Below, piece after piece: positions 4,751 through 36,420 of a stretch of 64,000 bases of DNA. Origin of the DNA: Terriglobia bacterium (lineage in GTDB: Bacteria; Acidobacteriota; Terriglobia; JAJPHL01; JAPKYU01); assembly GCA_965206645.1 (NCBI GenBank), contig CBDBKE010000004.1, positions 480,001-544,000 on the forward strand, in the 5' to 3' direction. How positions within the stretch are numbered: the first letter of the stretch is position 1; each line of letters starts with the position of its first letter. The translations under genes and the position numbers were made by a program. A model generated the notes under the pieces. That model did not search any database. It was given only the letters and a program-made list of their open reading frames with translations, and was not told the DNA's origin.

Positions 4751-4942
4751 CAACAGATGACCAATTACCTCATGGACCGTGCGGTCGAGCACGAGCGCGA
4801 AGCGCCGGTCAAGGAGAAGACGGCGGCGGAGTTGAGCCACCAATATTCTCATGCTCGCGGGCCTCAGATCAGCCAGACGCCGAAGCAATCCACGGAACAA
4901 CACGCGCAGAAGCTCCAACGCGAGGCTGGGTTGAGCCGGTAA
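4751..4942 (+). pseudogene. ardC: C-terminal remnant of ArdC
   Basis: YLMDRAVEHEREAPVKEKTAAELSHQYSHARGPQ..REAGLSR is identical to the tail of the intact ArdC at 35335-36420. Confidence 0.85.
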
Positions 4943-4951
4943 GGAGCCGTC

Positions 4952-5848
4952 GTGTTCGATCCGCGAGACCTAGCTACCGATCCCCGCAGGACCGTAACGC
5001 GCCCCAGGCGCGACCACACCAAAGAACGAGAGCAAAGACAGCGCGACGGCCACCGGCGCGAATACGATCCCCGCACCGAGCGCCGGAACTTCCAGGAGCG
5101 GGCGGATCGGGCGGTGGCCGACCTGGGGATGTATCGGAGTGTCGCCTACCGCGATCTGGCCGATGCTCACTTCGATGGACACCCTTACGCGGCGCGTCGG
5201 GCCGTGGATCGCATGATTCGGGCCGGGCACGTCCGGGAGCACACTGCCGAGGGGCCGCAAGGCGGCGCCTACAAGGTGCTCACGCTCACCGAGCGCGGAG
5301 TAGAGCGGGCCGGGCGCGTAGCCCGCGAACAAGGGCTGGACCCGGCGCAGAAGGCATGGAGCGGCCTCGTGAAGCCCGGAGAGCTTCAACATGACGTGGC
5401 CGTGTTTCGAGCCGCAAGGATTGAGCAAGTGCGGTTGCTCGAACAAGGAGCCGTCCTCAAGCGGGTCCGCATTGACGCCGAACTCAAGCGCGAGGTCGCC
5501 CGCGCCACGGAAAGCGCGAGAGCGCGAGGCGGTAAGGAGGCGGCGGACGCCGCACGGTTCCAGGCGGCGGAAGAGTTGAGCCTCCCCGTCAAGGATGGAC
5601 GGGTGGAGTACCCGGACGCGCAGCTGGAGTACGACATCGAGGGCCGCAGCGGGCGCGTGAACGTCGAGATTGCGACCGAGCACTACAGCGCCAAGAGTAT
5701 CGGCGCAAAAGCCGCCGCTGGATTCGCCGTGCATGGAAGCAATGGGCGGGCGGCGGCACGAGTAGCGCGGGCGCTCGGCCAGGACCACAGCACCGGAGGC
5801 GGAGGAGGAAGCGGAGGCAGACGAGACAAGGGCTCCATCGAACTCTGA
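4952..5848 (+). CDS. wHTH + PD-(D/E)XK protein, Replic_Relax/MOBC-like relaxase candidate
   Basis: wHTH-like AVDRMIRAGHV..VLTLTERG, then LQHDVAV, YPDAQLEY and VNVEIATEHY; immediately upstream of the virB operon. Confidence 0.5.
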   Translation: MFDPRDLATDPRRTVTRPRRDHTKEREQRQRDGHRREYDPRTERRNFQERADRAVADLGMYRSVAYRDLADAHFDGHPYAARRAVDRMIRAGHVREHTAEGPQGGAYKVLTLTERGVERAGRVAREQGLDPAQKAWSGLVKPGELQHDVAVFRAARIEQVRLLEQGAVLKRVRIDAELKREVARATESARARGGKEAADAARFQAAEELSLPVKDGRVEYPDAQLEYDIEGRSGRVNVEIATEHYSAKSIGAKAAAGFAVHGSNGRAAARVARALGQDHSTGGGGGSGGRRDKGSIEL

Positions 5849-5858
5849 GGGAGAAGCG

Positions 5859-6182
5859 ATGCAACCGTGGAAAATCAGTGTCGGACTGACGGCCATCATC
5901 CTGGCCGTGGCCTTGATGGTGGCCGGCGAGAGCTTCGCTTATCTCAAGCCGTACTTAGGAATCATCGCAACCAACTACTGGCTACCCGTCGCGTGGTATG
6001 GCGGGCTGGCCGTGGTGACGCTGATGGTCACGCTCTACTCCGCCGCCCGCGCCTTGGGGCTGGCCGACATGGGCCGCAAGGTCGATCTGATGGAGCGGTC
6101 CATTCGGCGCGGGGAAGGCGGGCAAACCGAGCTTGCCGAGAAACTGGAACAAGAGGACCGGGGGCAGTTTCCCGGAGCCTGA
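5859..6182 (+). CDS. Small membrane protein of the T4SS operon
   Basis: Two hydrophobic segments; GGGAG RBS; conserved in ICE copy 2. Confidence 0.7.
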   Translation: MQPWKISVGLTAIILAVALMVAGESFAYLKPYLGIIATNYWLPVAWYGGLAVVTLMVTLYSAARALGLADMGRKVDLMERSIRRGEGGQTELAEKLEQEDRGQFPGA

Positions 6183-6214
6183 TGCACAGCGACCCAACAG
6201 ACACGGAGGGAAGC

Positions 6215-6508
6215 ATGAAGGACAACAACTCAATCACCTGGAAGCGAGGAGCGCTGCTGGCGAGCATCCTTGCACTATCGGCGGGAGAACTCATGGCGCA
6301 GGGAACGAGCCCCTGGCTGCAAGCCATAGACGTGCTGCAGGCGGCGTTCACCGGACCCATTGCGCGAGGACTGAGCTTGATTGCCATCGTGGTGGGCGGG
6401 CTCATGTTCGCCTTTGGTGAAGGCGGCAGCAAAAAGGCCCTGGCCGGGATCGTCTTCGGTCTTGGCATGGCCATGGGCGCGGCCAACTTTCTGGCGTGGC
6501 TCTTCTGA
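6215..6508 (+). CDS. virB2: VirB2/TrbC pilin
   Basis: Signal peptide, then SPWLQAIDVLQAAFTGPIARGLSLIAIVVGGLMFAFGEGG; GGAGG RBS. Confidence 0.88.
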   Translation: MKDNNSITWKRGALLASILALSAGELMAQGTSPWLQAIDVLQAAFTGPIARGLSLIAIVVGGLMFAFGEGGSKKALAGIVFGLGMAMGAANFLAWLF

Positions 6509-6804
6509 TGGAGCGCGGCAAGACATGGCGCGGCTACCCGGCGCTTTCCAAACCCCTAACGATCATGGGCGTGGAACGGCGCTGGTTCCTTCTGAGCGCC
6601 ACGTTGGGCCTTGCCATGTGGAACGCCATCAACTCCATTGTGACCGGGGGAGTCATTTTCGCGGTGCTCTACGGCGTGGGATTTTGGGCCTGGAAACAAG
6701 ACCCCAACATGCTTGAAATCCTGCGAGCGTCGGCCAAGTTCCGCGTCCGCTACGATCCCGGCAAGTGGGCGGCTTCTCCCTGGACGATCCTGATTCGGAG
6801 ATAG
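6508..6804 (+). CDS. virB3: VirB3/TrbD
   Basis: ALSKPLTIMGVER, two TM segments, KQDP; TGATG overlap with virB2. Confidence 0.85.
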   Translation: MERGKTWRGYPALSKPLTIMGVERRWFLLSATLGLAMWNAINSIVTGGVIFAVLYGVGFWAWKQDPNMLEILRASAKFRVRYDPGKWAASPWTILIRR

Positions 6805-6807
6805 CGC

Positions 6808-9231
6808 GTGAATGTGGACAACGAACTCCTGGACTACGAAGCGGCGGGATCGCTGGCCGAGGAACTGCCCTGGTGGGGCTGGCTGGGAGATGGGCAAACG
6901 TGTCTGACGCGGGCGGGAGAACTTCTGAGCATCGGGCGGGTGACACCCAGCGTCCTGGACGGCCAGACGCCCGAACAACTGGATCGAGTGATCGACCGCT
7001 GGCAGCGGATGTTGTCGGGGCTCGATTCCAGGACGCGGCTTTACTTCTATCTATTGCGCCGCCCGATCCGCTTTGCGGACGATACCGATGGCGCGACATC
7101 GAGCGTGGCCGCGCTCGGACGGCGCAAGCGGCGGGCGTTCCTCGCGGATCGAGTGCAGGACGTGAGCGCCTACGTTGCATGGGTTCACGATCCGCACCTG
7201 TCCGCCGTCACCACCGGGAGGACGGGCGGGCCGTGGTGGATGGCCTATGCCAAGAACTGGATGGCCCGGAGGCGGAACCGGCATGAATCCGTTTACCTCC
7301 ATTCCTCTATCGAATCCGCAGCAGCCAGCTTCCGGCAGCTGGTCGAGGCAAGCCGGGCGCTGGTCGATGACCTTACGCCGGTGCGGATGCTCGAAGCGCG
7401 GGAAGCGTCTCTCGTCTTGAATGAACTCACGAACCGGCCCGGAACCTTTTGGGACGGCGCGAGGGGCAGCGGCATGAACTGGCGGCTGGCCGTCTCAGAG
7501 CTCGAAGCGGAGCGGCGCAATCTGCGCCTGGACGGTGAACCCGTCATTCTCTACTCGCTGCTTTCGCCACCGGGAGCGGCCCGCGCCAATCTTCTGCAGG
7601 GTCTTTACCGGCTCGATGCAACGATGACGGTGACGCTCGAATGGCGGCCGCAGCGCCTCGATGCCGCCCGGCGCAAAATCCGTGGAGCGCAGCGGCATTA
7701 CTTCTCGAAGCGCTACTCGATGTCCGCGCACGTTCAGGAAACCGAGGGAACGGCGTCGGCGATGGTGGACACGGCGGCGGCGGCGGAATCCGACCGGCTG
7801 GGCGATGCCCTGGTCGAGTTGGAGACGGACGGGATCGCCTACGGCGACCTGGCCTTGACCGTGGCGATCCACGGCCCGCTATCCGAGACCGAGAGCCTGG
7901 ACGGGGATATTCGACGCATCTTTAACAGCCACGACGCCAAGGTGATCCGGGAAGGTTACGGGCAGCTTCCGGCCTGGTTCTCGCGGATGCCCGCGCAACC
8001 GCGACGGCGGCAGGTTCGATCCGTGTTTGTATCGGCGGGCGCGGTTGCTTCGATGGCCCCGATCTTCGGGCCGCCGGTGGGGACACCCCGGAGCGGCCAC
8101 TTGCGGAAGCCGGCGCTGGCGATCCTTGAGACCCAATGGCGGACTCCCTACCACTACGATCTGTTTCAGGGCGACGTGGGACACACGCTGGTTCTCGGCG
8201 CGACCGGCGCGGGTAAAAGTTTCTTGCTCAATTTCCTGCTGGTTCAGGCGCTCCAATACGATCCGCGTGTTCTCATTCTCGATCTCGGCGGCTCCTATCG
8301 CTGGCTGACGCAGTTTCTAGGGGGCGGCTATATGGAGCTATCCCCCGACGGGAGCGGGAGCGCCGGTTTTCGGTTGCGCCCCTTCTCGCTCCCGGTCGGG
8401 GAGCGGAGCTTCCAATTCCTCACCGGCTGGATATCGCGCTTGTTGAGGATCGGCGGGTGGAAACTCAGTGGCGAAGACCCCAGCGAGATTCGCGCCCGCG
8501 TCGAAGACCTCTACGCCTTTGCACCCCAGCGGCGGACCCTTGGGGTGCTGGTCCGTTCTCTTCCCGCAAAGATGTGGCCCGCTTTGGGCCGCTGGCACGG
8601 AGCCGGCGCGTGGGCCAGGTACTTTGACAACCCGGCGGACGGAGACGATCTCAACTTTCAAGACTGGCAGGTGATCGACATGGCGGGCGCGGCGGAGCAC
8701 GAAGACTTGTGCGAAGCGGCGCTGTTCTACCTTCTCGAACGGTTGCGGCTGGCTTTGGAGAACCCGGATGAGACCGCAAGGGTAAAACTCATGGTGGTCG
8801 ATGAAGCCTGGCGCTACCTGAAAGACCCGGCGGTGCTTTCCTATCTGGCCGAGGCCGCGAAGACCTGGCGCAAGAAGAACGCGGCGCTCGTCGTCGCCAC
8901 GCAGAGCGCCGTGGACGTAACCGGAACCGCAGGGGCGGAAGCGTTGCTCGAATCCATGCCGACCAAGCTATTCCTTGCCAATCCCGACTTGCCGGAGAAA
9001 GCCGCAGACACCTTCCGGCTCAACCCTTCGGAAATGAACACCATTCGCGGCTTGATCCCCAAACGGGAGCTTTATCTACGGCGCACCGACGCGGCGGGCA
9101 TCTTGCGGCTCGAAGTCGATCCAGCCAGCTATTGGCTCTATACCTCGTCGCCGGTCGATGCTCAGAAGCGGGCGGAAGCAGTCAAACAGTATGGCCTCAC
9201 CGAGGCCATTGAACATCTGTCCAGGAGGTAG
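6808..9231 (+). CDS. virB4: VirB4 ATPase
   Basis: GHTLVLGATGAGKS, ILDLGGSY, VVDEAWRYL, RKKNAALVVATQS. Confidence 0.92.
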   Translation: MNVDNELLDYEAAGSLAEELPWWGWLGDGQTCLTRAGELLSIGRVTPSVLDGQTPEQLDRVIDRWQRMLSGLDSRTRLYFYLLRRPIRFADDTDGATSSVAALGRRKRRAFLADRVQDVSAYVAWVHDPHLSAVTTGRTGGPWWMAYAKNWMARRRNRHESVYLHSSIESAAASFRQLVEASRALVDDLTPVRMLEAREASLVLNELTNRPGTFWDGARGSGMNWRLAVSELEAERRNLRLDGEPVILYSLLSPPGAARANLLQGLYRLDATMTVTLEWRPQRLDAARRKIRGAQRHYFSKRYSMSAHVQETEGTASAMVDTAAAAESDRLGDALVELETDGIAYGDLALTVAIHGPLSETESLDGDIRRIFNSHDAKVIREGYGQLPAWFSRMPAQPRRRQVRSVFVSAGAVASMAPIFGPPVGTPRSGHLRKPALAILETQWRTPYHYDLFQGDVGHTLVLGATGAGKSFLLNFLLVQALQYDPRVLILDLGGSYRWLTQFLGGGYMELSPDGSGSAGFRLRPFSLPVGERSFQFLTGWISRLLRIGGWKLSGEDPSEIRARVEDLYAFAPQRRTLGVLVRSLPAKMWPALGRWHGAGAWARYFDNPADGDDLNFQDWQVIDMAGAAEHEDLCEAALFYLLERLRLALENPDETARVKLMVVDEAWRYLKDPAVLSYLAEAAKTWRKKNAALVVATQSAVDVTGTAGAEALLESMPTKLFLANPDLPEKAADTFRLNPSEMNTIRGLIPKRELYLRRTDAAGILRLEVDPASYWLYTSSPVDAQKRAEAVKQYGLTEAIEHLSRR

Positions 9232-9237
9232 CTGATT

Positions 9238-10080
9238 ATGTTGAAGATCATTCCACTCGTGATGGCGGCGCTGCTTGCCCTGTCGTTGCCGCTGATCGCT
9301 CAGGACGGCGGGCAGGTCCTGCGCGTCATCGAGGCCCAGGATCAAATCATCCAGATTCGGGCCAAGACCCGGCACACCACCGTCATCGTGCTTCCCGCGA
9401 CGGAAAACGTGCTGGATTTTGTCGTGGGGGATTCCGAGTACTGGCACCTGACCGGGGCCGCTAATCTGGCCTTCCTCAAACCCATCGCCGAGGGCGTGAC
9501 TACCAACGTCGCGCTGGTTTGCGCCTCCGGTCGCATCTACTCGTTCCTCGTCACCGAGCGGAGCGCGGGAGATCCGCACCTGGTGGTTCGCATCGAGGCG
9601 CAGGGAGAAGCCGACCCGCGCATTTCACCGACCGGGCACGAACCGGCCTTTGTCGCTCGCTCCCAGGTCGCGGCCTATCAGCAGATGGCGGAAACGGCCA
9701 TCGAGACGGCCAAGGCCGCGCAGGTAGACGCGGATAACCGGATCGCGGAGGCGGCGGCGGAGGAGGCACAGAAAACCGAGGCGTTCCGGGCGGAGTATCC
9801 CACGCGCCTCAAGTTCCCTTACCGATTGGAGGACAAGGCGAAGAAATGGCCGTTTCTGGTCGAAGGGATGTGGCATGACGGGCGGTTTACCTACCTTCGC
9901 GCCAACCCCCAGGAGTCGCCCGCGCTGTACGAAGAGAAGGACGGGAAACCGGCGCTGGTGGCCTACGATCTGGGCGAGGACGGGCTGTATATCGCCCGTC
10001 ACGTTTTAGGTGACGGCTGGTTGCAGATCGGCAAACAAAAAGTCCGATGGCGCTTCACGGCGCCGGAGATCGGACCGTGA
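9238..10080 (+). CDS. virB9: VirB9/TrbG
   Basis: Signal peptide; TTVIVLP..VVGDSEYW..FLKP..TNV; WHDGRFTYL. Confidence 0.85.
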   Translation: MLKIIPLVMAALLALSLPLIAQDGGQVLRVIEAQDQIIQIRAKTRHTTVIVLPATENVLDFVVGDSEYWHLTGAANLAFLKPIAEGVTTNVALVCASGRIYSFLVTERSAGDPHLVVRIEAQGEADPRISPTGHEPAFVARSQVAAYQQMAETAIETAKAAQVDADNRIAEAAAEEAQKTEAFRAEYPTRLKFPYRLEDKAKKWPFLVEGMWHDGRFTYLRANPQESPALYEEKDGKPALVAYDLGEDGLYIARHVLGDGWLQIGKQKVRWRFTAPEIGP

Positions 10081-11429
10081 TCGGCTGGCGGCGGCTGTAC
10101 CCCAAACCGGCGGGATCGCTGCCCGGCGGCATCGTCACTCAATGGGGCGTCGGGATCATCACCATTCTGGTCCTCGTATTTCTGACGTACTGGATTTATT
10201 TCGGCGGCGGCGAGGAAGCGGAGCTTTCGCCGGGCACGGAGACGGAACAGGGGGCGGCGCGGAGCTTCGCCGATCAAATGGCCGCGCAGGTCGAAGCAGA
10301 GTCGCTTCGAGCCGCGACGCGCCGACAAGCGGCGGAGCGGGCGTTGCAGCAGCAACAACGACAACAGGGGGCCAGCGGAGGCGGGATCGGCGCGGGGCGC
10401 GTAACCGCCGATCAAGCGAAGGCGCTGGCCGGGACAAGTCCCGACACCGGGCAGCCCTACACCGAGGAAGAATGGGAACTCCGGAAACGCTTGCGGCTGG
10501 AAGCGGTCGAGCGGCGCAGCCGGTCGCTTCGCAGTTCGCCGGTCGCACAGACCTACCGGCAAGTGGATCGAGCGGCGGCGGAAACCGAGGCGCGGCGGAG
10601 CGAAACCGCAAGCCCGGTCGATGCCATGAGAGCGGAAGGGGCGGCGGCGCTCGAACAGGCGCTCGACACGATTGGGACGGTCACGACCGGCCTCGAAGAT
10701 GAAGTAGCGGCGGAGACCCAAGCGGACCGAGCGTTTATCGAAGCACTCAGAGGGACACCAACCGCTGCGGCCACGCCCGCCGTTCCCACGGCGTCAGCGG
10801 GCCCCCCACCGGCGCGGGATTACTCTTCTCCGGCTCGTGTTGGTGCACCGGATGATCCCCCCGGTTGGGAGCGCATCCATGAAGGCTCGTTTTTGGAAGC
10901 GGCCCTGGTCACGCAGCTTTCCGGTGACTTTCCCGGCCCGGTCCTGGCCGTGGTTTCGGTGCCTGTTTATTCGGCAGACCGACAGCGCATCTTGGTGCCG
11001 CGTGGTACGCGGGTCATTGGTACGGCTCAGGCCGTATCCAATCAGGACCAAGCCCGACTCGCCGTGAGTTTCCACCGCTTGATCTACCCCGACGGGCGTT
11101 GGGTGGCGCTGCAATTTCATGGGTTGAATCAAGTCGGCGAGGGAGCCCTGAAAGATCAAGTCAACCGACACTACTTTTCCATGTTCGCCGCTGTCGGGGC
11201 GGTCGGCATCCTGGCCGGACTCACGGCGCAAGGCGGCAACCCTTACGAGGGCGGCGTGGCGGGCTTCCGGGCCGGTGCGGGGCAGGGACTCGGACAGGCC
11301 GCTACTCGCATCCTGGATCGTTTCTTGAATCGTTTATCCACCCTCACAATACGCGCCGGGCATCGGCTTCGCGTCTGGTTCACTTCCGACGTGCTGGTGC
11401 CCCGGTCCGCAAAAAGGAGATTGAAATGA
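10077..11429 (+). CDS. virB10: VirB10/TrbI
   Basis: N-terminal TM; EGSFLEAALVTQLSGDFPGPV..LVPRGTRVIG..GALKDQVNRH..TIRAGHRLRV. Confidence 0.88.
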   Translation: MIGWRRLYPKPAGSLPGGIVTQWGVGIITILVLVFLTYWIYFGGGEEAELSPGTETEQGAARSFADQMAAQVEAESLRAATRRQAAERALQQQQRQQGASGGGIGAGRVTADQAKALAGTSPDTGQPYTEEEWELRKRLRLEAVERRSRSLRSSPVAQTYRQVDRAAAETEARRSETASPVDAMRAEGAAALEQALDTIGTVTTGLEDEVAAETQADRAFIEALRGTPTAAATPAVPTASAGPPPARDYSSPARVGAPDDPPGWERIHEGSFLEAALVTQLSGDFPGPVLAVVSVPVYSADRQRILVPRGTRVIGTAQAVSNQDQARLAVSFHRLIYPDGRWVALQFHGLNQVGEGALKDQVNRHYFSMFAAVGAVGILAGLTAQGGNPYEGGVAGFRAGAGQGLGQAATRILDRFLNRLSTLTIRAGHRLRVWFTSDVLVPRSAKRRLK

Positions 11430-12340
11430 AACACCGAATTTTTACCGGAGCGGTGGTCATCCCGCTTCTGATCGTGCTGACCACCACGCCCGCCTACGCC
11501 ATCTTCGGCTCGATCCTGGCGGGCATTCAACGGGCGCAGATGATCATCAATCAGGGCGTCCAGATTTACGAGGCGCAGATCGCCAAGCTGACGATGGACA
11601 CCCAATTGACCGAACTGACGGACCAGTTCTCACACTTGAAAGATCAGGCGCTCGGAAGCGTCGGCGCGCTCACCGATCCGTTCACCGACCTGGCATCGGT
11701 CCCGACGCGGTTCATCGGCGTGGGCCTATCGTGGAAAAGCGATTTTACCGGCGTGGCGGCGGAGCTTGCGTCGTCAGTCGAACAGATGGGCGAAACCGGC
11801 AAGAGCTTTGCCCAATCCTGGCGCGGGCGGCTCACCGCCGCCGACACGGTGACCGAGAGCGACATCCTCACTCTGTACGGGGACTATCGCCCGGAGATCG
11901 CGGCGCAGGCGGCCAGCGGCTACCTCGCGGCGCGGGAGGAAGGCGACAAGCGCCTGGTGCTCGATCACGCAATGAGCGACGCGGCGGCGAATCTCATGAT
12001 TGCGGCGCGAGACGCCGTGGAGTCCTACGAAGGACTACGAAACAACACCAATACTTCCAACACCGCCCTTGCTCAATCACAAGTGGCCGGGACGGTGACG
12101 CAAGGAAACCTCACCGCTGCTATGGCGCAGTTGATGGCATTCCAGGCGGCGAAGGAGGCGGCAGAGGATTACGAACGCGAGATTGCTCGGCGGGAGGCGC
12201 TGGCTCGATGGATCGAGACGCAGCGCCGCGCCGAGATCACCTTCGCGGCGCAACAGGCCGGGCTCGATGCCCGCCGCGATTCCATGCGCGAAGGGTTGCT
12301 CTTTCGGATTCACCCGGCCTACGGCGGGAACGGCCAGTAA
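11426..12340 (+). CDS. VirB5/TrbJ-like secreted helical protein
   Basis: Signal peptide ending PAYA, Q/A-rich helices, position directly before virB6. Confidence 0.6.
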   Translation: MKHRIFTGAVVIPLLIVLTTTPAYAIFGSILAGIQRAQMIINQGVQIYEAQIAKLTMDTQLTELTDQFSHLKDQALGSVGALTDPFTDLASVPTRFIGVGLSWKSDFTGVAAELASSVEQMGETGKSFAQSWRGRLTAADTVTESDILTLYGDYRPEIAAQAASGYLAAREEGDKRLVLDHAMSDAAANLMIAARDAVESYEGLRNNTNTSNTALAQSQVAGTVTQGNLTAAMAQLMAFQAAKEAAEDYEREIARREALARWIETQRRAEITFAAQQAGLDARRDSMREGLLFRIHPAYGGNGQ

Positions 12341-12352
12341 TCCATTTCGCCG

Positions 12353-27903: not shown

Positions 27904-27915
27904 CGGCGAAATGGA

Positions 27916-28830: not shown

Positions 28831-28833
28831 TTT

Positions 28834-30192
28834 TCAGTCTCCTTTTGTGGGCCGGGGCACCAGCACGTCGGAAGTGAACCAGACGCGAAGCCGATGCCCG
28901 GCGCGAATGGTGATGGTGGGTAAACGATTCAAGAACCGCTGCAAGATTTGGGTGGCGCTTTGTCCGAGTCCCTGCCCGGCACCGGCCCGGAAGCCCGCCA
29001 CGCCGCCCTCGTAAGGGTTGCCGCCTTGCGCCGTGAGTCCGGCCAGGATGCCGACCGCCCCGACAGCGGCGAACATGGAAAAGTAGTGTCGGTTGACTTG
29101 ATCTTTCAGGGCTCCCTCGCCGACTTGATTGAGCCCATGAAATTCGAGCGACACCCAACGCCCGTCGGGGTAGATCAAGCGGTGGAAACTCACGGCGAGT
29201 CGGGCTTGGTCCTGATTGGATACGGCCTGAGCCGTGCCAATGACCCGCGTACCTCGCGGCACCAAGATGCGCTGCCGGTCTGCCGAATAAAAAGGCACCG
29301 AAACCACGGCCAGGACCGGGCCGGGAAAGTCACCGGAAAGCTGAGTGACCAGCGCCGCTTCTAAAAACGAGCCTTCATGGATGCGCTCCCAACCGGGGGG
29401 ATCATCCGGCCCGTCAAGCCGGGCCGGAGAAGAGTAATCCCGCGCCGGTGGGGGGCCCGCTGACGCCGTGGGAACGGCGGGCGTGGCCGCAGCGGTTGGT
29501 GTCCCTCTGAGTGCTTCGATAAACGCTCGGTCCGCCTGGGCCTCCGCCGCTACTTCATCTTGGAGGCCGGTCGTGACCGTCCCAATCGTGTCGAGGGCCT
29601 GTTCGAGCGCCGCCGCCCCTTCCGCTCTCATGGCATCGACCGGGCTTGCGGTTTCGGCCCCCTGCCCCTCGGACGACGCCCCCTCCCTGCCGTCCAGTTG
29701 CCGGTAGGTCTGTGCGACCGGCGAACTGCGAAGCGACCGGCTGCGCCGCTCGAGGGCTTCCAGCCGCAAGCGTTCCCGGAGTTCCCATTCTTCCTCGGTA
29801 TAGGGTTGCCCGGTGTCGGGACTCGGCCCGGCCAGGAGCATCGCTTCATCGACACTCACCCGCCCCGCGCCGATCCCGCCTCCGCTGGCCCCCTGTTGTC
29901 GTTGCTGCCGTCCCTGCTGCTGCAAAGCCCGCTCCGCCGCTTGTCGGCGCGTCTCCGCTCGAAGCGACTCCGCTTCGACCTGCGCGGCCATCTGATCGGC
30001 GAAGCTCCGGGGCGCGGTCTGCTCTGTGGCCGTCTCGGTCGCAAGCCCTGCTTCCTCACCGCCTCCGAAATAAATCCAGTACGTCAGAAACACGAGGACC
30101 AGAATGGTGATGATCCCGACGCCCCATTGAGTGACGATGCCGCCCGGCAGCGATCCCGCCGGTTTGGGGTACAGCCGCCGCCAGCCGATCAC
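28834..30192 (-). CDS. virB10: VirB10 (copy 2)
   Basis: Paralogue of 10077-11429. Confidence 0.88.
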   Translation of the reverse strand: MIGWRRLYPKPAGSLPGGIVTQWGVGIITILVLVFLTYWIYFGGGEEAGLATETATEQTAPRSFADQMAAQVEAESLRAETRRQAAERALQQQGRQQRQQGASGGGIGAGRVSVDEAMLLAGPSPDTGQPYTEEEWELRERLRLEALERRSRSLRSSPVAQTYRQLDGREGASSEGQGAETASPVDAMRAEGAAALEQALDTIGTVTTGLQDEVAAEAQADRAFIEALRGTPTAAATPAVPTASAGPPPARDYSSPARLDGPDDPPGWERIHEGSFLEAALVTQLSGDFPGPVLAVVSVPFYSADRQRILVPRGTRVIGTAQAVSNQDQARLAVSFHRLIYPDGRWVSLEFHGLNQVGEGALKDQVNRHYFSMFAAVGAVGILAGLTAQGGNPYEGGVAGFRAGAGQGLGQSATQILQRFLNRLPTITIRAGHRLRVWFTSDVLVPRPTKGD

Positions 30193-31031
30193 GGCCCGAT
30201 CTCCGGCGCGGTGAAGCGCCACCGGACTTTTTGTTTGCCGATCTGCAACCAGCCGTCACCCAAAACGTGACGGGCGATATACAGCCCGTCCTCGCCCAGA
30301 TCGTAGGCCACCAGCGCCGGTTTCCCGTCCTTCTCTTCGTACAGTGCGGGCGACTCCTGGGCGTTGGCGCGAAGGTAGGTAAACCGCCCGTCGTGCCACA
30401 TCCCTTCGACTAGAAACGGCCATTTCTTCGCCTTGTCCTCCAATCGGTAAGGGAACTTGAGGCGCGTGGGATACTCCGCCCGGAACGCCTCGGTTTCCCG
30501 CGCCGCAAGCGCCGTAACGTCGGCGATGCGGGAATCCGCGTCAACTTGCGCATCCTTGGCCGTCTCAATGGCTGTTTTCGCCATTTGCTGATAGGCCGCG
30601 ACCTGGGAGCGAGCGACAAAGGCCGGTTCGTGCCCGGTCGGTGAAATGCGCGGGTCGGCGTCCGCCTGGGCCTCGACGCGAACCACCAGATGCGGCTGGC
30701 CCGCACTTCGCTCGGTGACGAGGAACGAGTAGATGCGCCCGGAGGCGCAAACCAGCGCGACGTTGGTAGTCACGCCCTCGGCGATGGGTTTGAGGAAGGC
30801 CAGATTAGCGGCCCCGGTCAGGTGCCAGTACTCGGAATCTCCCACGACAAAATCCAGCACGTTTTCCGTCGCGGGAAGCACGATGACGGTGGTGTGCCGG
30901 GTCTTGGCCCGAACCTGAATGATTTGATCCTGGGCCTCGATGACGCGCAGGACCTGCCCACCGTCCTGAGCGATCAGCGGCAACGACAGGGCAAGTAGCG
31001 CCGCTATCACGAGTGGAATGATCTTCAACAT
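30189..31031 (-). CDS. virB9: VirB9 (copy 2)
   Basis: Paralogue of 9238-10080. Confidence 0.85.
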   Translation of the reverse strand: MLKIIPLVIAALLALSLPLIAQDGGQVLRVIEAQDQIIQVRAKTRHTTVIVLPATENVLDFVVGDSEYWHLTGAANLAFLKPIAEGVTTNVALVCASGRIYSFLVTERSAGQPHLVVRVEAQADADPRISPTGHEPAFVARSQVAAYQQMAKTAIETAKDAQVDADSRIADVTALAARETEAFRAEYPTRLKFPYRLEDKAKKWPFLVEGMWHDGRFTYLRANAQESPALYEEKDGKPALVAYDLGEDGLYIARHVLGDGWLQIGKQKVRWRFTAPEIGP

Positions 31032-31037
31032 AATCAG

Positions 31038-33459
31038 CTACCTCCTGGACAGGTGTTCAATGGCCTCGGTGAGGCCATACTGTTTGACTGCTTCCGCCCG
31101 CTTCTGAGCATCGACCGGCGACGAGGTATAGAGCCAGTAGCTCGCCGGATCGACTTCGAGCCGCAAGATGCCCGCCGCGTCGGTGCGCCGTAGATAAAGC
31201 TCCCGTTTGGGGATCAAGCCGCGAATGGTGTTCACTTCCGAAGGGTTGAGCCGGAACGTCTCGGCGGCTTTCTCCGGCAAGTCGGGATTGGCAAGGAATA
31301 GCTTGGTCGGCATGGATTCGAGCAACGCTTCCGCCCCTGCGGTCCCGGTTACGTCCACGGCGCTCTGCGTGGCGACGACGAGCGCCGCATTCTTCTTGCG
31401 CCAGGTCTTCGCGGCCTCGGCCAGATAGGAAAGCACCGCCGGGTCTTGGAGGTAGCGCCAGGCTTCATCGACCACCATGAGTTTTACCCTTGCGGTCTCA
31501 TCCGGGTTCTCCAAAGCCAGCCGCAACCGTTCGAGAAGGTAGAACAGCGCCGCTTCGCACAAGTCTTCGTGCTCCGCCGCGCCCGCCATGTCGATCACCT
31601 GCCAGTCCTGAAAGTTGAGATCGTCTCCGTCTGCCGGGTTGTCAAAGTACCTGGCCCACGCTCCGGCTCCGTGCCAGCGGCCCAAAGCGGGCCACATCTT
31701 TGCGGGAAGGGAGCGGACCAGCACCCCAAGGGTCCGCCGCTGGGGTGCAAAGGCATAGAGGTCTTCGACGCGGGCGCGAATCTCGCTGGGGTCTTCGCCG
31801 CTGAGTTTCCACCCGCCGATCCTCAACAGACGCGATATCCAGCCGGTGAGGAACTGGAAGCTCCGCTCCCCGACCGGGAGCGAGAAGGGGCGCAACCGGA
31901 AACCGGCGCTCCCGCTCCCGTCGGGGGATAGCTCCATATAGCCGCCGCCTAGAAACTGCGTGAGCCAGCGATAGGAGCCGCCTAGATCGAGAATGAGAAC
32001 ACGCGGATCGTATTGGAGCGCCTGAACCAGCAGGAAATTGAGCAAGAAGCTTTTACCCGCGCCGGTCGCGCCGAGAACCAGCGTGTGCCCCACGTCGCCT
32101 TGAAACAGATCGTAGTGGTAGGGAGTCCGCCATTGGGTCTCAAGGATCGCCAGCGCCGGCTTCCGCAAGTGGCCGCTCCGGGGTGTCCCCACCGGCGGCC
32201 CGAAGATCGGGGCCATCGAAGCGACCGCGCCCGCCGATACAAACACGGATCGGACCTGCCGCCGTCGCGGTTGCGCGGGCATCCGCGAGAACCAGGCCGG
32301 AAGCTGCCCGTAACCTTCCCGGATCACCTTGGCGTCGTGGCTGTTAAAGATGCGCCGAATATCTCCGTCCAGGCTTTCGGTCTCCGATAGCGGGCCGTGG
32401 ATCGCCACGGTCAGGGCCAGGTCGCCATAGGCGATACCGTCCGTCTCCAACTCGACCAGGGCATCGCCCAGCCGGTCGGATTCCGCCGCCGCTGCCGTGT
32501 CCACCATCGCCGACGTCGTTCCTTCGGTTTCCTGAACGTGCGCGGACATCGAGTAGCGCTTCGAGAAGTAATGCCGCTGCGCCCCACGGATTTTGCGCCG
32601 GGCGGCATCGAGGCGCTGCGGCCGCCATTCGAGCGTCACCGTCATGGTTGCATCGAGCCGGTAAAGACCCTGCAGAAGATTGGCGCGGGCCGCTCCCGGT
32701 GGCGAAAGCAGCGAGTAGAGAATGACGGGTTCCCCGTCCAGGCGCAGATTGCGCCGCTCCGCTTCGAGCTCTGAGATGGCCAGCCGCCAATTCATGCCGC
32801 TGCCGGTCGCGCCGTCCCAAAAGGTTCCGGGCCGGTTCGTGAGTTCATTCAAGACGAGAGACGCTTCCCGCGCTTCAAGCATCCGCACCGGCGTAAGGTC
32901 ATCCACCAGCGCCCGGCTCGCCTCAACCAGCTGCCGGAAGCTGGCTGCCGCCGATTCGATAGAGGAATGGAGGTAAACGGATTCATGCCGGTTCCGCCTC
33001 CGGGCCATCCAGTTCTTGGCATAGGCCATCCACCACGGCCCGCCCGTCCTCTCGGTGGTGACGGCGGACAGGTGCGGATCGTGAACCCATGCGACGTAGG
33101 CGCTCACGTCCTGCACTCGATCCGCGAGGAACGCCCGGCGCTTGCGCCGTCCGAGCGCGGCCACGCTCGACGCCGCGCCATCGGATCGTCTGCAAAGTGG
33201 ATCGGGCGGCGCAACAGATAGAAGTAAAGCCGCGTCCGGGAATCGAGCCCCGACAACATCCGCTGCCAGCGGTCGATCACCCGATCCAGTTGTTCGGGAG
33301 TCTGGCCGTCCAGGACGCTGGGCGTCACCCGCCCGATGCTCATAAGTTCCCCGCCCGCGTCAGGCACGTTCGCCCATCTTCGAGCCAGCCCCACCAGGGC
33401 AGTTCCTCGGCCAGCGATCCCGCCGCTTCGTAGTCCATGAGTTCGTTGTTTACGTTCAC
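31038..33459 (-). pseudogene. virB4: VirB4 (copy 2) with two 1-bp deletions near 33185 and 33350
   Basis: 2422 nt versus 2424 in copy 1; GACGATCCGATG vs GACGATACCGATG, and GCGGGGAACTT vs GCGGGAGAACTT. Confidence 0.8.
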
Positions 33460-33464
33460 CCGCG

Positions 33465-33761
33465 CTATCTCCGAATCAGGATCGTCCAGGGAGAAGCGGC
33501 CCACTTGCCCGGATCGTAGCGGACGCGAAACTTGGCCGAGGCCCGTAGGATTTCAAGCATGTTGGGGTCTTGTTTCCAGGCCCAAAATCCCACGCCGTAG
33601 AGCACCCCGAAAATGACTCCCCCGGTCACAATGGAGTTGATGGCGTTCCACATGGCAAGGCCCAACGTGGCGCTCAACAGAAACCAGCGCCGTTCCACGC
33701 CCATGATCGTGAGGGGTTTGGAAAGCGCCGGGTATCCGCGCCATGTCTTGCCGCGCTCCAT
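33465..33761 (-). CDS. virB3: VirB3 (copy 2)
   Basis: Near-identical to 6508-6804. Confidence 0.85.
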   Translation of the reverse strand: MERGKTWRGYPALSKPLTIMGVERRWFLLSATLGLAMWNAINSIVTGGVIFGVLYGVGFWAWKQDPNMLEILRASAKFRVRYDPGKWAASPWTILIRR

Positions 33762-34055
33762 CAGAAGAGCCACGCCAGAAAGTTGGCCGCGCCCATGGCC
33801 ATGCCAAGACCGAAGACGATCCCGGCCAGGGCCTTTTTGCTGCCGCCTTCACCAAAGGCGAACATGAGCCCGCCCACCACGATGGCAATCAAGCTCAGTC
33901 CTCGCGCAATGGGTCCGGTGAAGGCTTGCCTGCAGCACGTCTATGGCTTGCAGCCAGGGGCTCGTTCCCTGCGCCATGAGTTCTCCCGCCGATAGTGCAA
34001 GGACGCTCGCCAGGAGAGCGCCCCGCTTCCAGATGATTAAGTTGTTGGTGTTCAT
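33761..34055 (-). pseudogene. virB2: VirB2 pilin (copy 2), +1 frameshift near 33927
   Basis: 295 nt versus 294; CAGGCAAGCCTTC vs CAGGCGGCGTTC. Confidence 0.78.
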
Positions 34056-34087
34056 GCTTCCCTCCGTGTCTGTTGGGTTGTTGTGCG

Positions 34088-34412
34088 TCAGGCTCCGGGA
34101 AACTGCCCCCGGTCCTCTTGTTCCAGTTTCTCGGCAAGCTCGGTTTGCCCGCCCTCGCCGCGCCGAATGGACCGCTCCATCAGATCGACCTTGCGGCCCA
34201 TGTCGGCCAGCCCCAAGGCACGAGCGGCGGAGTAGAGCGTGACCAGAAGCGTCACCACGGCCAGACCGCCATACCACGCGACGGGCATCCAGTAGTCGGT
34301 TGCGATGATTCCAAAAGTACGGCTTGAGATAAGCGAAGCTCTCGCCGGCGAGCATCAAGGCCACGGCCAGGATGATGGCCGTCAGTCCAATGCTGATCTT
34401 CCACGGTTGCAT
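34088..34412 (-). pseudogene. Small membrane protein (copy 2), +1 frameshift near 34315
   Basis: 325 nt versus 324; TACTTTTGGA vs TACTTAGGA. Confidence 0.7.
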
Positions 34413-34422
34413 CGCTTCTCCC

Positions 34423-35325
34423 TCAGAGTTCGATGGAGCCCTTGTCTCGTCTGCCGCCGCTTCCCCCTCCGCCTCCGGTGCTGTGGTCCTGGCCGAGCGA
34501 CCGCGCTACTCGCGCCGCCGCCCGCCCATTGCTTCCGTGCACGGCGAATCCAGCGGCGGCTTTCGCGCCGATACTCTTGGCGCTGTAGTGCTCGGTCGCA
34601 ATCTCGACGTTCACGCGCCCGCTGCGGCCCTCGATGTCGCTGTACTCCAGCTGCGCGTCCGGGTACTCCACCCGTCCATCCTTGACGGGGAGCCCCAACT
34701 CTTCCGCCGCCTCAAACCGTGCGGCGTCCGCCGCCTCCTTTCCGCCTCGCGCTCTCGCGCTTTCCGTGGCGCGGGCGACCTCGCGCTTGAGTTCGGCGTC
34801 AATACGGACCCGCTTGAGGACGGCTCCTTGTTCGAGCAACCGCACTTGCTCAATCCTTGCGGCTCGAAACACGGCCACGTCATGTTGAAGCTCTCCGGGC
34901 TTCACGAGGCCGCTCCATGCTTTCTGCTCTTTGTCGAGTCCTTGTTCGCGGGCTACCCGCTCGGCCCGCTCTACTCCGCGCTCGGTGAGCGTGAGCACCT
35001 TGTAGGTGCCGCCTTGCGGCCCCTCGGCGGTGTGCTCCCGGACGTGGCCGGCGCGAATCATGCGATCCACGGCCCGCCGCGCCGCGTAAGGGTGTCCATC
35101 GAAGTGAGCTTCGGCCAGATCACGGTAGGCGATGCTGCGATACATCCCCAGGTCGGCCACCGCCCGATCCGCCCGCTCCTGGAAGTTCTGGCGTTCCGTG
35201 CGGGGATCGTATTCGCGCCGGTGGCCGTCGCGCTCCCGCTGTTCCCGTTCTTTGGTGTGGTCGCGCCTGGGGCGCGTTGTGGGACGGGTCCGGGGATCGC
35301 TGGCTAGGTCTCGCGGATCGAACAC
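34423..35325 (-). CDS. wHTH + PD-(D/E)XK relaxase candidate (copy 2)
   Basis: Near-identical to 4952-5848. Confidence 0.5.
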   Translation of the reverse strand: MFDPRDLASDPRTRPTTRPRRDHTKEREQRERDGHRREYDPRTERQNFQERADRAVADLGMYRSIAYRDLAEAHFDGHPYAARRAVDRMIRAGHVREHTAEGPQGGTYKVLTLTERGVERAERVAREQGLDKEQKAWSGLVKPGELQHDVAVFRAARIEQVRLLEQGAVLKRVRIDAELKREVARATESARARGGKEAADAARFEAAEELGLPVKDGRVEYPDAQLEYSDIEGRSGRVNVEIATEHYSAKSIGAKAAAGFAVHGSNGRAAARVARSLGQDHSTGGGGGSGGRRDKGSIEL

Positions 35326-35334
35326 GACGGCTCC

Positions 35335-36420
35335 TTACCGGCTCAACCCAGCCTCGCGTTGGAGCTTCTGCGCGTGTTGTTCCGTGGATTGCTTCGGCGT
35401 CTGGCTGATCTGAGGCCCGCGAGCATGAGAATATTGGTGGCTCAACTCCGCCGCCGTCTTCTCCTTGACCGGCGCTTCGCGCTCGTGCTCGACCGCACGA
35501 TCCATGAGGTAATCGGTCATCTTCTGCGCGTCCCGCGCCGCTCTATGAATCTCGTGCGGGTCTTTTTCGAGCACCGCAACCCAATTCTCGACATAGGCCG
35601 CGCCGCGCTGCGGGTCATGCCCCACGCCCACGCGCTCCCCCGTCATCATGGCGCTGATCTCGGCCCTCAATTCCTCGCGGGCGTACTCCGGCGATCCAAA
35701 GCCCTTGTCCAGTCCTTCTTTGAGCGTGTCGCGGTTCATGCGGTCCGGGTGGCCGGTCGAGTGACCGCATTCGTGAAGCGCCGTTTGGTAGTAGCCGTTG
35801 CGCGTGGGGAATTGGGACGGCTCCGGGAGCACCACCTTGTCCTCGGCGATCCGGTAATAGGCCCGATCTCCGGCGACGTGCTGCACTCTCGGCCCGCTGG
35901 CCTCGATCACCTTCTCGGCATCGCGGTGGGCGTCCCATTCAGGCCGCGCTTGCGCCGGTCGCGGTTTCAACTCCAATCCGTCGACTTGCTCGACGTTGAA
36001 CACCGTGTACTGTTTACAGATGGGATGGGAACGCTGCTCTTCTTCGTAGATCGTCTTGCCGTCCTTGTCTTTCAGAGTCTTGCCCTGCTCGTCCTTTGCG
36101 GTTCGTGCCGTCCGATCCGTGAAAAACAAGACCTGCGTCCCTTTCTCGCCTTTGCGGACATGGCCTCCCTGGGCCTCGATCTGTTTGTAGGTTCCCCAGC
36201 GGTTATCGCCGTGGCCCTGGCGGATACCCCTGCTCATCAGGTAGAGACTGTTGCCGCCGCTGTAGGATTTGCCGGTCGAGAGGTTTTCCGGGCTGATCTG
36301 CTCCCCCGGCTTCCACGGCTTCTGCCATGGCGCCACGCCCGCCTTGATTTGTTCGACGAGTTCGCTAGAGACTTTCTCGGCGTAGTCTTCCCCGCGCTGC
36401 CAAAAGGATTTCTTAGCCAT
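35335..36420 (-). CDS. ardC: ArdC antirestriction/ssDNA-binding protein
   Basis: APWQKPW, YSGGN, WGTYKQ, VRKGEKG, YTVFNVEQ (DUF1738), plus zincin HECGHSTGH and YAREELRAE. Confidence 0.9.
   Translation of the reverse strand: MAKKSFWQRGEDYAEKVSSELVEQIKAGVAPWQKPWKPGEQISPENLSTGKSYSGGNSLYLMSRGIRQGHGDNRWGTYKQIEAQGGHVRKGEKGTQVLFFTDRTARTAKDEQGKTLKDKDGKTIYEEEQRSHPICKQYTVFNVEQVDGLELKPRPAQARPEWDAHRDAEKVIEASGPRVQHVAGDRAYYRIAEDKVVLPEPSQFPTRNGYYQTALHECGHSTGHPDRMNRDTLKEGLDKGFGSPEYAREELRAEISAMMTGERVGVGHDPQRGAAYVENWVAVLEKDPHEIHRAARDAQKMTDYLMDRAVEHEREAPVKEKTAAELSHQYSHARGPQISQTPKQSTEQHAQKLQREAGLSR

Follow-up and report, generated by a model that had tools for sequence, protein, structure and literature searches.

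Two related conjugative islands probably occupy a single tRNA-Val(CAC) gene in opposite polarity

How can two related conjugative elements come to face each other across one tRNA gene? This arrangement lies within the 64,000-nt stretch of DNA analysed here (hereafter, the window), and an initial annotation had regarded it as a variant of tandem accretion. We favour a different explanation, to which we assign a probability of roughly 0.85: two conjugative islands of one family, encoding sister tyrosine integrases, integrated into the anticodon stem-loop of the same tRNA-Val(CAC) gene in opposite polarity. The islands, termed L (left) and R (right), would lie head to head around the gene because one replaced its 3′ half and the other its 5′ half; accretion does not account for this, as the 3′ half is found in L and the 5′ half in R.

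Results

Mirror-image repeat around tRNA-Val(CAC)

Self-comparison of the window yielded 19 collinear inverted-repeat blocks, from 4755–4986/35291–35522 through 19654–19818/20228–20392, an extent that far exceeds chance. BLAST aligned 4755–18414 with 35522–21823 at 92.9% identity across 13,716 nt, and the integrase genes (18573–19818 and 21467–20228) at 68.3% identity on the DNA level. The single tRNA gene that ARAGORN detected in the window was tRNA-Val(CAC) (19984–20060, minus strand), which is also the genome's sole gene for that anticodon, and the symmetry centre of the repeat falls on its anticodon stem-loop (20017–20033). Self-comparison, BLAST and ARAGORN thus confirmed the previously annotated imperfect inverted repeat of about 15 kb around one tRNA gene. 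Its two copies are indeed not a fold-back or an assembly palindrome: the arms are about 7% divergent, the integrases are 72% identical, and each island has a separate distal end.

The size of 15 kb proposed for the elements did not hold. The islands measure approximately 67 kb (left) and 69 kb (right), and the arms make up no more than the integrase-proximal portions of these much larger units. Their description as sister elements applies to the integrases, each of which is nearer to the other than to the integrases encoded by the Pro and Ala copies (approximately 52% identical), but not to the conjugation backbones. The L–R backbone identity was 0.905, compared with 0.896–0.920 for the other pairs that include L or R and 0.896–0.927 for all ten pairs; by this measure, L and R stand no closer together than either does to three further copies in the genome.

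Gene content and state of the islands

The left conjugation module (4751–18399, plus strand), located by Pfam matches, consists of a 3′ remnant of ardC, a gene for a conserved 298-aa protein, virB2, virB3, virB4, virB9, virB10, an unnamed ORF, virB6, virB8, another unnamed ORF, virD4, and virB11. It is followed on the same strand by genes for an excisionase (18510–18758; HTH_17) and a tyrosine integrase (18742–19869; Phage_integrase), the latter 99% identical to the integrase of the congener G001. On the minus strand, the right tyrosine integrase (20141–21298; Phage_integrase) adjoins an ORF listed as excisionase-like (21276–21512) and the right module (21838–36450), which contains virB11, virD4, virB8/6, virB10/9, a split virB4, virB3/2, a gene for a 300-aa protein, and a full ardC (35335–36450). 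Pfam supported VirB2, VirB3, VirB4, VirB9 (CagX), VirB10 (TrbI), VirB6 (TrbL), VirB8, a VirD4-type coupling protein, and VirB11 on both arms, together with an HTH_17 excisionase and a Phage_integrase. For these genes, the annotated order from ardC through virB, virD4, virB11 and xis to int on both strands was upheld, but the labels "relaxase-like", "virB5", "X" and "origin" found no Pfam or NCBIfam support, and of the ardC annotated on the left arm only the last ~190 nt (4751–4942) remain. The left copy is cut because a 1250-bp IS3-family insertion sequence (copy A, 3501–4750, minus strand; HTH_Tnp_1 and rve ORFs) truncates the left element, and a complete ArdC is encoded on the right arm only.

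The same insertion sequence, present in 49 full-length copies in the genome, occurs twice more in the window as copy B (40901–42150, plus strand), which is inverted relative to copies A and C, and copy C (52397–53646, minus strand). Around them the right island continues on the minus strand with small ORFs and a gene for an FN3/LRR repeat protein whose beginning extends into copy B (36451–40900), cargo encoding a SNF2-family helicase, a PLD-domain protein, and a partial transposase (42151–52396), and further cargo comprising a DUF5131/PDC-M41-like pair and the BREX genes brxL (split), pglZ, and pglX (split) (53647–64000). It extends past the window end to C4:569031.

Both islands have several components of an ICE: a site-specific integrase, direct repeats of 50 nt and 42 nt at their ends, and, by Pfam, type IV secretion (mating-pair formation) genes with a coupling protein. 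They share VirB2, 3, 4, 6, 8, 9, 10, 11, VirD4, ArdC, integrase, and excisionase with VirB/VirD4 (MPF-T type) ICEs, and differ from them in that genome-wide searches with three relaxase families (PF03432, PF08751, and PF07514) gave no matches. The 298-aa protein adjoining ardC, which matched nothing in Pfam or NCBIfam, has an Atlas lead to Replic_Relax (0.90), and its structural model (pLDDT 56.7) gave a best Z of 5.4, to nuclease-like folds; it might perhaps be the relaxase. The virB4 gene of the right arm is broken into two ORFs (33104–33394 and 31038–33164, minus strand) by R-specific deletions that shift the frame. Because of this frameshift and the IS truncation of L, both islands are decayed, and neither looks transfer-competent today.

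Island ends and alleles in relatives

The 3′ part of the present tRNA-Val(CAC) gene comes from L and its 5′ part from R, and identity blocks of both islands lie within it, in agreement with the annotation that both elements use one tRNA. The L block, tRNA positions 28–77 (19984–20033, minus strand), has a second copy 67 kb leftward (C4:433305–433354; 98% over 50 nt), and the R block, positions 1–42 (20019–20060, minus strand), has one 69 kb rightward (C4:569032–569073; 100% over 42 nt). Both displaced copies keep the orientation of the tRNA, and each lies on the expected side. Next to the 5′ copy is the native promoter. A TGGTATAAT box stands before this copy, and the DNA upstream of it corresponds to that preceding the intact tRNA in G001, G004, and G006; a displaced 5′ fragment joined to host upstream DNA is what characterizes an element of reversed polarity.

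The empty-site and single-element alleles predicted for relatives were found. In two related genera, tRNA-Val(CAC) is uninterrupted and bordered by the DNA that here lies left of 433305 and right of 569073, with gaps of 375 bp (G004) and 283 bp (G006). The congener G001 has the native upstream DNA and only an L-type arm and integrase, and in G003 the native site is occupied by R, next to a 3′-side element other than L. From the displaced halves and the empty and L-only alleles, we therefore concluded that L took the 3′ half and R, with reversed polarity, the 5′ half. The working tRNA gene is consequently made of two pieces of mobile DNA.

Attachment cores and the inverted loop

The two identity blocks, positions 28–77 and 1–42, both contain the 7-nt anticodon loop, which places both islands in the anticodon-loop class. 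They overlap at the stem-loop CCTGC-TTCACAC-GCAGG (20017–20033, minus strand), the presumed crossover site. We infer strand exchange at the borders of the loop because the blocks overlap there, as we infer the role of the stems as binding sites and the order in which the islands arrived. Beside the L core, GTTTTGATAC occurs three times (19863–19913, plus strand), and these repeats, read directly from the DNA, are probably arm-type integrase or Xis sites; at the distal end of L (C4:433460–433487) they are present again, with an identical spacer base. The proximal arm of R (20061–20158, minus strand) carries GTTTTGATAC twice (20138–20158). The two distal arms can be aligned with each other once one of them is mirrored, and each contains a pair of decamer repeats some 105 nt away from the core; the proximal arms are likewise homologous. 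In the frame of the aligned arms, the core reads CCTGC-GTGTGAA-GCAGG in L and CCTGC-TTCACAC-GCA in R: relative to the homologous arms, the palindromic stem CCTGC/GCAGG is unchanged and the 7-nt loop is inverted. The two ends of each island share that island's own repeat spacer. Since both ends retain their cognate arm repeats, the integrase–tRNA–integrase centre has not been inverted by arm–arm recombination since integration, an event that is logically possible.

These features suggest the following mechanism. The left island (C4:433355 to the tRNA) would have integrated in the usual mode, its attP with tRNA positions 28–77 replacing the 3′ part of the gene so that the host's own 3′ part came to lie 67 kb downstream. 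For the right island, which extends from the tRNA to C4:569031, attP is organized alike, its arms being homologous to those of L and its arm-type decamers the same. Its tRNA piece, however, comprises positions 1–42 in the opposite orientation, and this island would thus have replaced the 5′ part and displaced the original 5′ part of the host gene, together with the native promoter, to a place 69 kb upstream. Core binding presumably takes place at the two strands of the perfectly palindromic anticodon stem, and the loop, inverted between the two attPs, would be the overlap region that alone sets direction. Integration in opposite polarity may be possible because these sites form a palindrome in which only the loop is directional. 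As the integrase genes adjoin the cores, the islands would come to lie integrase to integrase, giving rise to the 15-kb mirror repeat.

Integrase family and promoter of the rebuilt tRNA

Eighty related integrase loci from other Acidobacteriota were surveyed. At 49 of them, the integrase gene lies upstream of and co-directional with the tRNA (5′ side) at a distance of 71–165 nt; the remainder comprised 26 convergent loci, three without a tRNA, and two at a contig end. Integration on the 5′ side is therefore a family trait in Acidobacteriota. At least five polarity changes are needed on the integrase tree, two of which are forced by well-supported branches, and polarity has thus switched at least two to five times. 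The CCTGC/GCAGG stem was present in 63/77 tRNAs of the surveyed loci; among the tRNAs of the present genome, the shorter CTGC/GCAG stem was found in 4/50, three of these with the full stem.

A TAGAAT-like −10 hexamer was found in element DNA at 48 of the 49 5′-side loci, and 46 of these hexamers lie 11–20 nt before the tRNA; in host DNA upstream of the 26 convergent loci, 18 of the hexamers found lie at that distance. The R arm has a degenerate −10-like hexamer, TGGAAG (20079–20084), at the family position, 18 nt before the tRNA, and a consensus promoter scan for the rebuilt tRNA in the window returned no promoter. The rebuilt tRNA may be transcribed from element DNA.

Recurrence of paired integrases

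Seven head-to-head integrase pairs, 276–323 nt apart, were found in 5 of 19 carrier genomes (151 genomes searched), and a tRNA lay between the integrases in all four of the newly fetched pairs; L047 and L073 are further paired loci. The integrase–tRNA–integrase geometry was present in the independent assemblies G003, G023, G065, G132, G031, and L047, and G023 and G065 are single-contig genomes. At tRNA-Ala(TGC) of G031, a 47-nt 3′ copy lies 45 kb to one side and a 40-nt 5′ copy 33 kb to the other, both 100% identical and with mirrored arms, and the same half-copy pattern was found at tRNA-Lys of G065. For the paired tRNA-Pro of G023, half copies were absent, and the only further copy was a complete one at a distance of 232 kb. 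In G003, a near-identical integrase pair flanks tRNA-Arg(TCT) instead of Val; pairs can therefore arise or move by additional routes. Centres off the native sites in G003 and G023 hint at tRNA-carrying composites.

Alternative explanations

An assembly artefact is an unlikely source of the mirror geometry. The assembler might have joined, in inverted orientation at the tRNA, 3′-side elements of two strains: the genome is highly repeat-rich, with its many IS copies and at least five ICE copies, and in public Logan contigs of four runs both integrase genes were covered and the tRNA was spanned by none. However, such a chimera would not yield a 100% identical 5′ half-copy by the native promoter 69 kb off, with its cognate distal arm; the centre is non-repetitive, as the integrase genes are only 68% identical at the DNA level; and the independent assemblies named above have the same geometry. 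We consider the chimera very improbable, and give no more credence to a chromosomal inversion ending at the tRNA that moved one of two 3′-side islands to the 5′ side. Inverted IS and ICE copies are plentiful and the genome is rearranged, the half copies of tRNA-Val(TAC), for example, sitting on another contig; nevertheless, the host flanks keep the relative order and orientation of the G004 and G006 empty sites, the R distal arm adjoins the 5′ and not the 3′ fragment, and the 5′ arrangement recurs with tight integrase–tRNA spacing at the 49 loci of other species.

A different history of the same biology is easier to entertain, though still unlikely. L and R may have fused attP to attP into a circle with a complete tRNA, which then entered the tRNA via a second hybrid site. 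This predicts exactly the end structure seen, and the centres in G003 and G023 contain a full tRNA away from half copies. Separate arrivals fit G001, where L is alone at the same site with its 99% identical integrase, and G003, where R neighbours a different 3′-side element. We retain two separate integrations of opposite polarity as the preferred reading.

Discussion

In tandem accretion arrays, several related elements stand at one tRNA in direct orientation on one side, with repeated tRNA fragments. L and R likewise are related elements at one tRNA with repeated fragments, but they are inverted and on opposite sides, with a functional gene in between. Reversed-polarity integrative elements were reportedly treated by Zhao and Williams in 2002 (J Bacteriol 184:859), and the differences from such elements drawn below may be partly anticipated there. 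Crossover in the anticodon loop by tyrosine integrases of tRNA-targeting islands and ICEs corresponds to the symmetric sublocation (Williams 2002), as passages of PMC8371274 and PMC4383910 describe. Islands of this class share an identity block over the stem-loop, an integrase beside the core, a displaced fragment at the far end, and a regenerated gene; L fits fully, whereas R carries the 5′ part instead of the 3′ part. A passage of PMC8371274 places pTN3-like archaeal integrases among the reversed-polarity elements, and Table 1 of PMC4383910 lists 159 of 3919 Islander islands with a 5′ fragment. R shares with such elements the replacement of the tRNA 5′ half, which separates the gene from its own promoter. 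Here, in contrast, the reversed form predominates within a single integrase family (49/80 loci), alternates with the usual form on the integrase tree, and stands beside a sister of normal polarity with att arms that match its own as homologous mirror images. Reversed-polarity islands are thus already known, and rare; the novelty lies in the occupation of one gene by a pair with sister integrases and in the anatomy of the flipped core.

These findings matter in several respects. Most inferences about how tyrosine integrases gain new sites and orientations come from comparisons over large distances. In the present case the integrases are sisters, their att arms are homologous, and at one and the same gene the 7-nt overlap inside the palindromic core is turned around between them; with empty, single-, and double-occupancy alleles in relatives, the rule that the loop sets polarity becomes directly testable. 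Software for detecting islands will misplace loci of this kind if it presumes 3′ fragments or a single island per tRNA. The host's only tRNA-Val(CAC) gene can become a two-element assembly, severed from its own promoter. More tentatively, and with the odds somewhat against it, one Acidobacteriota integrase lineage may read the CCTGC-N7-GCAGG stem and switch polarity and target tRNA by exchanging or inverting the tRNA cassette of attP. If so, paired occupancy would be common, host tRNA genes would be wholly element-borne and driven by element promoters, and a pair could fuse into a composite with a complete tRNA gene, providing a way for tRNA genes to be duplicated or relocated.

Two conjugation modules around one tRNA gene

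The genome under study (G000; 4.41 Mb, four contigs, 61% G+C) showed 19 collinear inverted-repeat blocks in the window, from 4755/35522 through 19818/20228, and BLAST gave 92.9% identity over 13,716 nt (4755–18414 against 35522–21823). The centre of symmetry at 20017–20033 was the anticodon stem-loop of tRNA-Val(CAC), which lies on the minus strand at 19984–20060 and was the sole tRNA found within the window. On both arms, Pfam identified VirB2, B3, B4, B9, B10, B6, B8, a VirD4-type coupling protein and VirB11, together with an HTH_17 excisionase and a tyrosine integrase. The repeat blocks, BLAST, the tRNA position and Pfam confirmed the ~15-kb inverted repeat around one tRNA described in the initial annotation. 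Its two distinct integrases were also found: the genes gave a 68.3% match by BLAST, and the proteins were 72% identical over 369 residues. It had placed ardC on both arms; this held for the right arm, which alone encodes a full ArdC (35335–36450), and the left-arm gene is cut by a 1250-bp element of the IS3 family (3501–4750), which is why the left arm starts at 4751. The labels 'relaxase-like', 'virB5' and 'origin' obtained no support from any family.

Extent and polarity of the islands

Two displaced partial copies of tRNA-Val(CAC), the single gene for this anticodon in G000, were identified on the contig of the window (C4, of which the window is 480001–544000), both oriented as the gene itself. 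Positions 28–77 (the 3' 50 nt) recur at C4:433305–433354 with 98% identity, positions 1–42 (the 5' 42 nt) at C4:569032–569073 with 100% identity, and the two identity blocks overlap at the anticodon stem-loop. Read in the tRNA sense, element DNA leads into the 3' copy and host DNA comes after it; at the 5' copy the order is the reverse, host DNA with a TGGTATAAT box standing before it and element DNA after it. Therefore, we concluded that the left island (L, ~67 kb) took over the 3' part of the gene and the right island (R, ~69 kb) its 5' part. The working gene consists of the 5' part borne by R and the 3' part borne by L. The arms first annotated as ICEs do contain real conjugation modules, and they are parts of these larger islands.

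Alleles in relatives and origin of the geometry

Sequences of 2 kb to the left of 433305 and to the right of 569073 were used as queries in 30 relatives. Two further genera of the family had the flanks adjacent in unchanged relative orientation: contig C106 of G004 has a gap of 375 bp between them, and contig C647 of G006 one of 283 bp. Each gap holds an intact tRNA-Val(CAC), and these loci are empty sites. In the congener G001, the tRNA had its native upstream sequence, identical to that beside the displaced 5' copy of G000, and its 3' side carried only an L-type arm and an integrase 99% identical to that of L. In a second congener, G003, a 42-nt 5' copy (C1:41620–41661) adjoined the right flank, and a tRNA-Val(CAC) accompanied by an R-type integrase (98%) was 34 kb away. 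The 3' side of this tRNA held a different element without an integrase, of the second integrase clade, and beside the left flank of G003 a 3' copy was followed by the cognate arm of that integrase-less element. Thus, the single-element and empty-site alleles that the initial annotation had proposed to look for both exist, and four states of the locus are on record: empty, L only, L plus R, and other plus R.

The flanks keep their order and orientation in G004 and G006, which contradicts a chromosomal inversion as the source of the head-to-head geometry. The Logan contigs examined from four (X14, X15, X17 and X19) of the 24 sequencing runs found covered both integrase genes, and none spanned the tRNA. 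A chimeric assembly join at the tRNA is unlikely, because it leaves unexplained why R has a cognate distal end whose perfect 5' copy adjoins the native promoter, and why independent assemblies, including two single-contig genomes, show this geometry too. The end structure would fit arrival of L and R either separately or as one fused circle; the L-only allele of G001 favours separate arrival.

Mirrored att arms and a proposed mechanism

Once one of them was reverse-complemented, the L and R distal arms, i.e. the att-flanking DNA at the end far from the integrase, were homologous. They have in common the conserved block …TTATCAAYAACTTGGGGAACCTGCT…GCAACCCCA… as well as a pair of GTTTTGATAC repeats at a distance of ~105 nt from the core. 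Homology extended to the integrase-proximal arms, where the decamer repeats recur at the stop codon of the integrase. In the shared arm frame, L has the core CCTGC-GTGTGAA-GCAGG and R has CCTGC-TTCACAC-GCA; the palindromic stem is the same in both, and the 7-nt loop has the opposite orientation. Each island had one repeat spacer at both of its ends, C for L and A for R (GTATCAAAAC-N-GTATCAAAAC orientation). Hence, the two ends of each island are a cognate pair, and no inversion of the centre has taken place since integration.

We infer in part from these arms that the integrase would bind the two stem strands of the anticodon stem and that strand exchange would take place around the 7-nt loop. 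The loop orientation in attP would then set the side of the crossover on which the element lies, and with it the tRNA half that the element must carry.

Between the core and the arm repeats, a distal-arm block (CAAYAAYTTGGGGAAYCTGCT … AACCCCA) was conserved in two species and in both polarities, at 4356–4560 of locus L001, 330–532 of L002, about 1548–1690 of L112 and about 1360–1500 of L114. It is probably a site for an accessory protein.

Integrase family and its polarity

The conjugation backbone was present in G000 in at least five large copies plus fragments, which were mosaic and ~90–93% alike, and the identity between L and R was no higher than in other pairs of copies. The integrases of the elements in G000 formed two clades, one comprising L, R and the 5'-side type of tRNA-Val(TAC), and the other (~52% identical) those at tRNA-Pro(GGG), tRNA-Ala(GGC) and the 3' side of tRNA-Val(TAC). 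The view of L and R as sister elements accordingly stands for the integrases, which share a clade, and fails for the backbone. Gene conversion between the arms was considered and rejected, as the longest identical run was 459 bp and the L–R identity did not exceed that of other pairs; at the sequence level there was no sign of recent exchange.

The family scan covered one genome per species and found 479 relatives, of which the best 80 loci were analysed; every one of these came from Acidobacteriota MAGs. The integrase was upstream of and co-directional with the tRNA, 71–165 nt away, at 49 of the best 80 loci (5'-side loci), 42 of them targeting tRNA-Pro(TGG), and was convergent with the tRNA at 26; three loci had no tRNA and two were at a contig end. 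Within this set, both polarities were seen at Pro(TGG), Val(CAC), Val(TAC), Arg(TCT) and Arg(CCT), and the stem CCTGC/GCAGG was present in 63 of 77 tRNAs. The shorter CTGC/GCAG stem occurred in 4 of the 50 tRNAs of G000, three of them with the full CCTGC/GCAGG, and the occupied Val genes are two of these four. A quick maximum-likelihood tree of 87 rows required at least five changes of polarity, two of them forced by starred branches; shuffling gave a mean of 24.7, and none of 500 shuffles was as low as observed.

Five loci scored as 3'-side (L033, L102, L044, L082 and L107) had the promoter-like box of a 5'-type arm upstream of the tRNA, and L033 and L102 had the arm repeats there too. Double occupancy, or what remains of it, may be more frequent than the count shows.

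Candidate promoters at 5'-side loci

At 48 of the 49 5'-side loci among the best 80 of 479, a TAGAAT-like hexamer was located within element DNA, 46 of these hexamers being 11–20 nt before the tRNA. The host sequence upstream of the 26 convergent loci had 18 hexamers in the same 11–20 nt bin. These sequence patterns suggest that 5'-side elements normally supply a promoter. The homologous hexamer is TGGAAG in the window and GGGAAG in a sibling copy, and a consensus scan of 19850–20250 detected neither promoter-like nor terminator-like sites.

Recurrence of head-to-head pairs

Integrases of this type were present in 19 of 151 sampled genomes of the class, including G106 (flagged unpublished). 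Seven head-to-head pairs, 276–323 nt apart, were identified in five of the 151 genomes: two each in G000 and G003, and one each in G023, G065 and G132. All four newly fetched pairs enclosed a tRNA (Pro-TGG, Lys-TTT, Arg-TCT and Val-TAC), and the best 80 loci added the pairs L047 (Pro-TGG) and L073 (Ala-TGC). In G031, the genome of L073, there are two partial copies of tRNA-Ala-TGC, both with 100% identity: the 3' one (47 nt) is 45 kb away on the 3' side, the 5' one (40 nt) 33 kb away on the 5' side. The arms are mirrored, with the same conserved distal-arm block. In G065, too, each kind of partial copy was on its own side of the tRNA (5' copies on the 5' side, one 3' copy on the 3' side).

The other pair of G000 surrounds tRNA-Val(TAC) at C4:2048746–2048822. 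At this pair (3489–6067 of L003, G000:C4:2044000–2053000) there was one integrase from each clade, and both elements were interrupted by IS copies within a few kb. Attachment-site (attP)-like junctions, consisting of a proximal arm, tRNA-Val(TAC) positions 1–40 and a distal arm, were also observed inside the G000 chromosome (C4:1073427–1074624, C4:1973733–1975027, C3:8573–9856 and C3:425414–425886), one of them adjoining an integrase 99.7% identical to that of R. These could be junctions of arrays, or could have been left behind by rearrangement.

Two cases speak against the simple picture. For the tRNA-Pro(TGG) pair of G023 (C1:6070377–6072872), the expected half copies were not found in the genome, which has a second full tRNA-Pro(TGG) (97%) 232 kb off at 6303712–6303788. 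In G003, tRNA-Arg(TCT) lies between integrases and arms 97% identical to L and R of the window (about 2600–2960 of L021, G003:C2:1911913–1917478), and a remnant of the 5' part of tRNA-Val(TAC) is just upstream; judged from its sequence, this pair looks like target switching via exchange of a tRNA cassette. Together, the two cases point to target switching with near-identical integrases, and the pair may have moved as a composite.

State of the islands and their cargo

The IS3-family element that cuts the left ardC recurs in the window at 40901–42150 and 52397–53646 (1250 bp each). On its four contigs, G000 contains many fragments of this element besides 49 copies of full length (≥1200 bp, ≥98%), and looks heavily IS-expanded and rearranged. 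The rest of the ardC region of L does not adjoin the IS that cuts it. Within the window, R has two IS insertions, broken BREX genes in its cargo and a broken virB4 (31038–33394, minus strand), split by 1-nt deletions into ORFs of 96 and 708 aa; the deletion at L position 7083 occurs in R only and is absent from all four other copies checked. Self-transfer of either island seems unlikely. In both L and R the int and xis ORFs are intact and the att repeats near-perfect, and thus their excision may still be possible.

Three relaxase Pfam families had no match in G000, which makes a conserved protein of 298–300 aa without a Pfam family, encoded next to ardC at 4952–5848 (+) and 34423–35325 (−), a possible candidate for an unrecognised relaxase. 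This protein has 698 homologues. Neither its 298-aa form nor a 314-aa protein matched Pfam at E ≤ 10 or NCBIfam, and the Atlas matches of the 314-aa protein were unnamed Acidobacteriota clusters only. The 298-aa protein gave one Atlas lead to Replic_Relax (0.90); its AlphaFold model was poor (mean pLDDT 56.7), with weak structural matches (best Z 5.4). A relaxase function was not assigned on this single lead, poor model and weak matches. The weak model suggests a winged helix and a nuclease-like domain.

In the decayed BREX cargo, brxL (55722–57769) and pglX (60368–63935), both on the minus strand, are each split into two ORFs, and pglZ (57759–60368) is whole. The region 44657–50963 (minus strand) encodes an SNF2-family helicase (965 aa), a PLD-domain protein (701 aa) and a 446-aa protein; by PADLOC its genes matched PDC-M27C, DrmD, ZacC and ZacB, and the set is a possible defence module. 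A 961-aa FN3/LRR repeat protein (38084–40969, minus strand), with internal repeats 74% identical, has its first codons in the IS copy at 40901–42150, its true start being lost.

Relation to known tRNA integration

In the textbook case, integration occurs at the anticodon stem-loop, the gene's 3' part being regenerated (PMC8371274). Table 1 of Islander lists a 5' fragment in 159 islands versus a 3' fragment in 3760 (PMC4383910), and 5' recombination has been termed 'considerably less frequent', with Zhao & Williams 2002 cited for it (PMC6563490). Replacement of the 5' part is known and rare. Neither two opposite-polarity islands on one tRNA nor sister attPs with a flipped core were found in titles, abstracts and passages of the literature searched, which was that outside subscription papers; passages of PMC1635311, PMC9897764 and bioRxiv 10.1101/2020.12.28.424599 likewise contained no such island pair. 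The phenomenon underlying the locus is already known in outline. It provides a natural, testable example of integration polarity being set and reversed.
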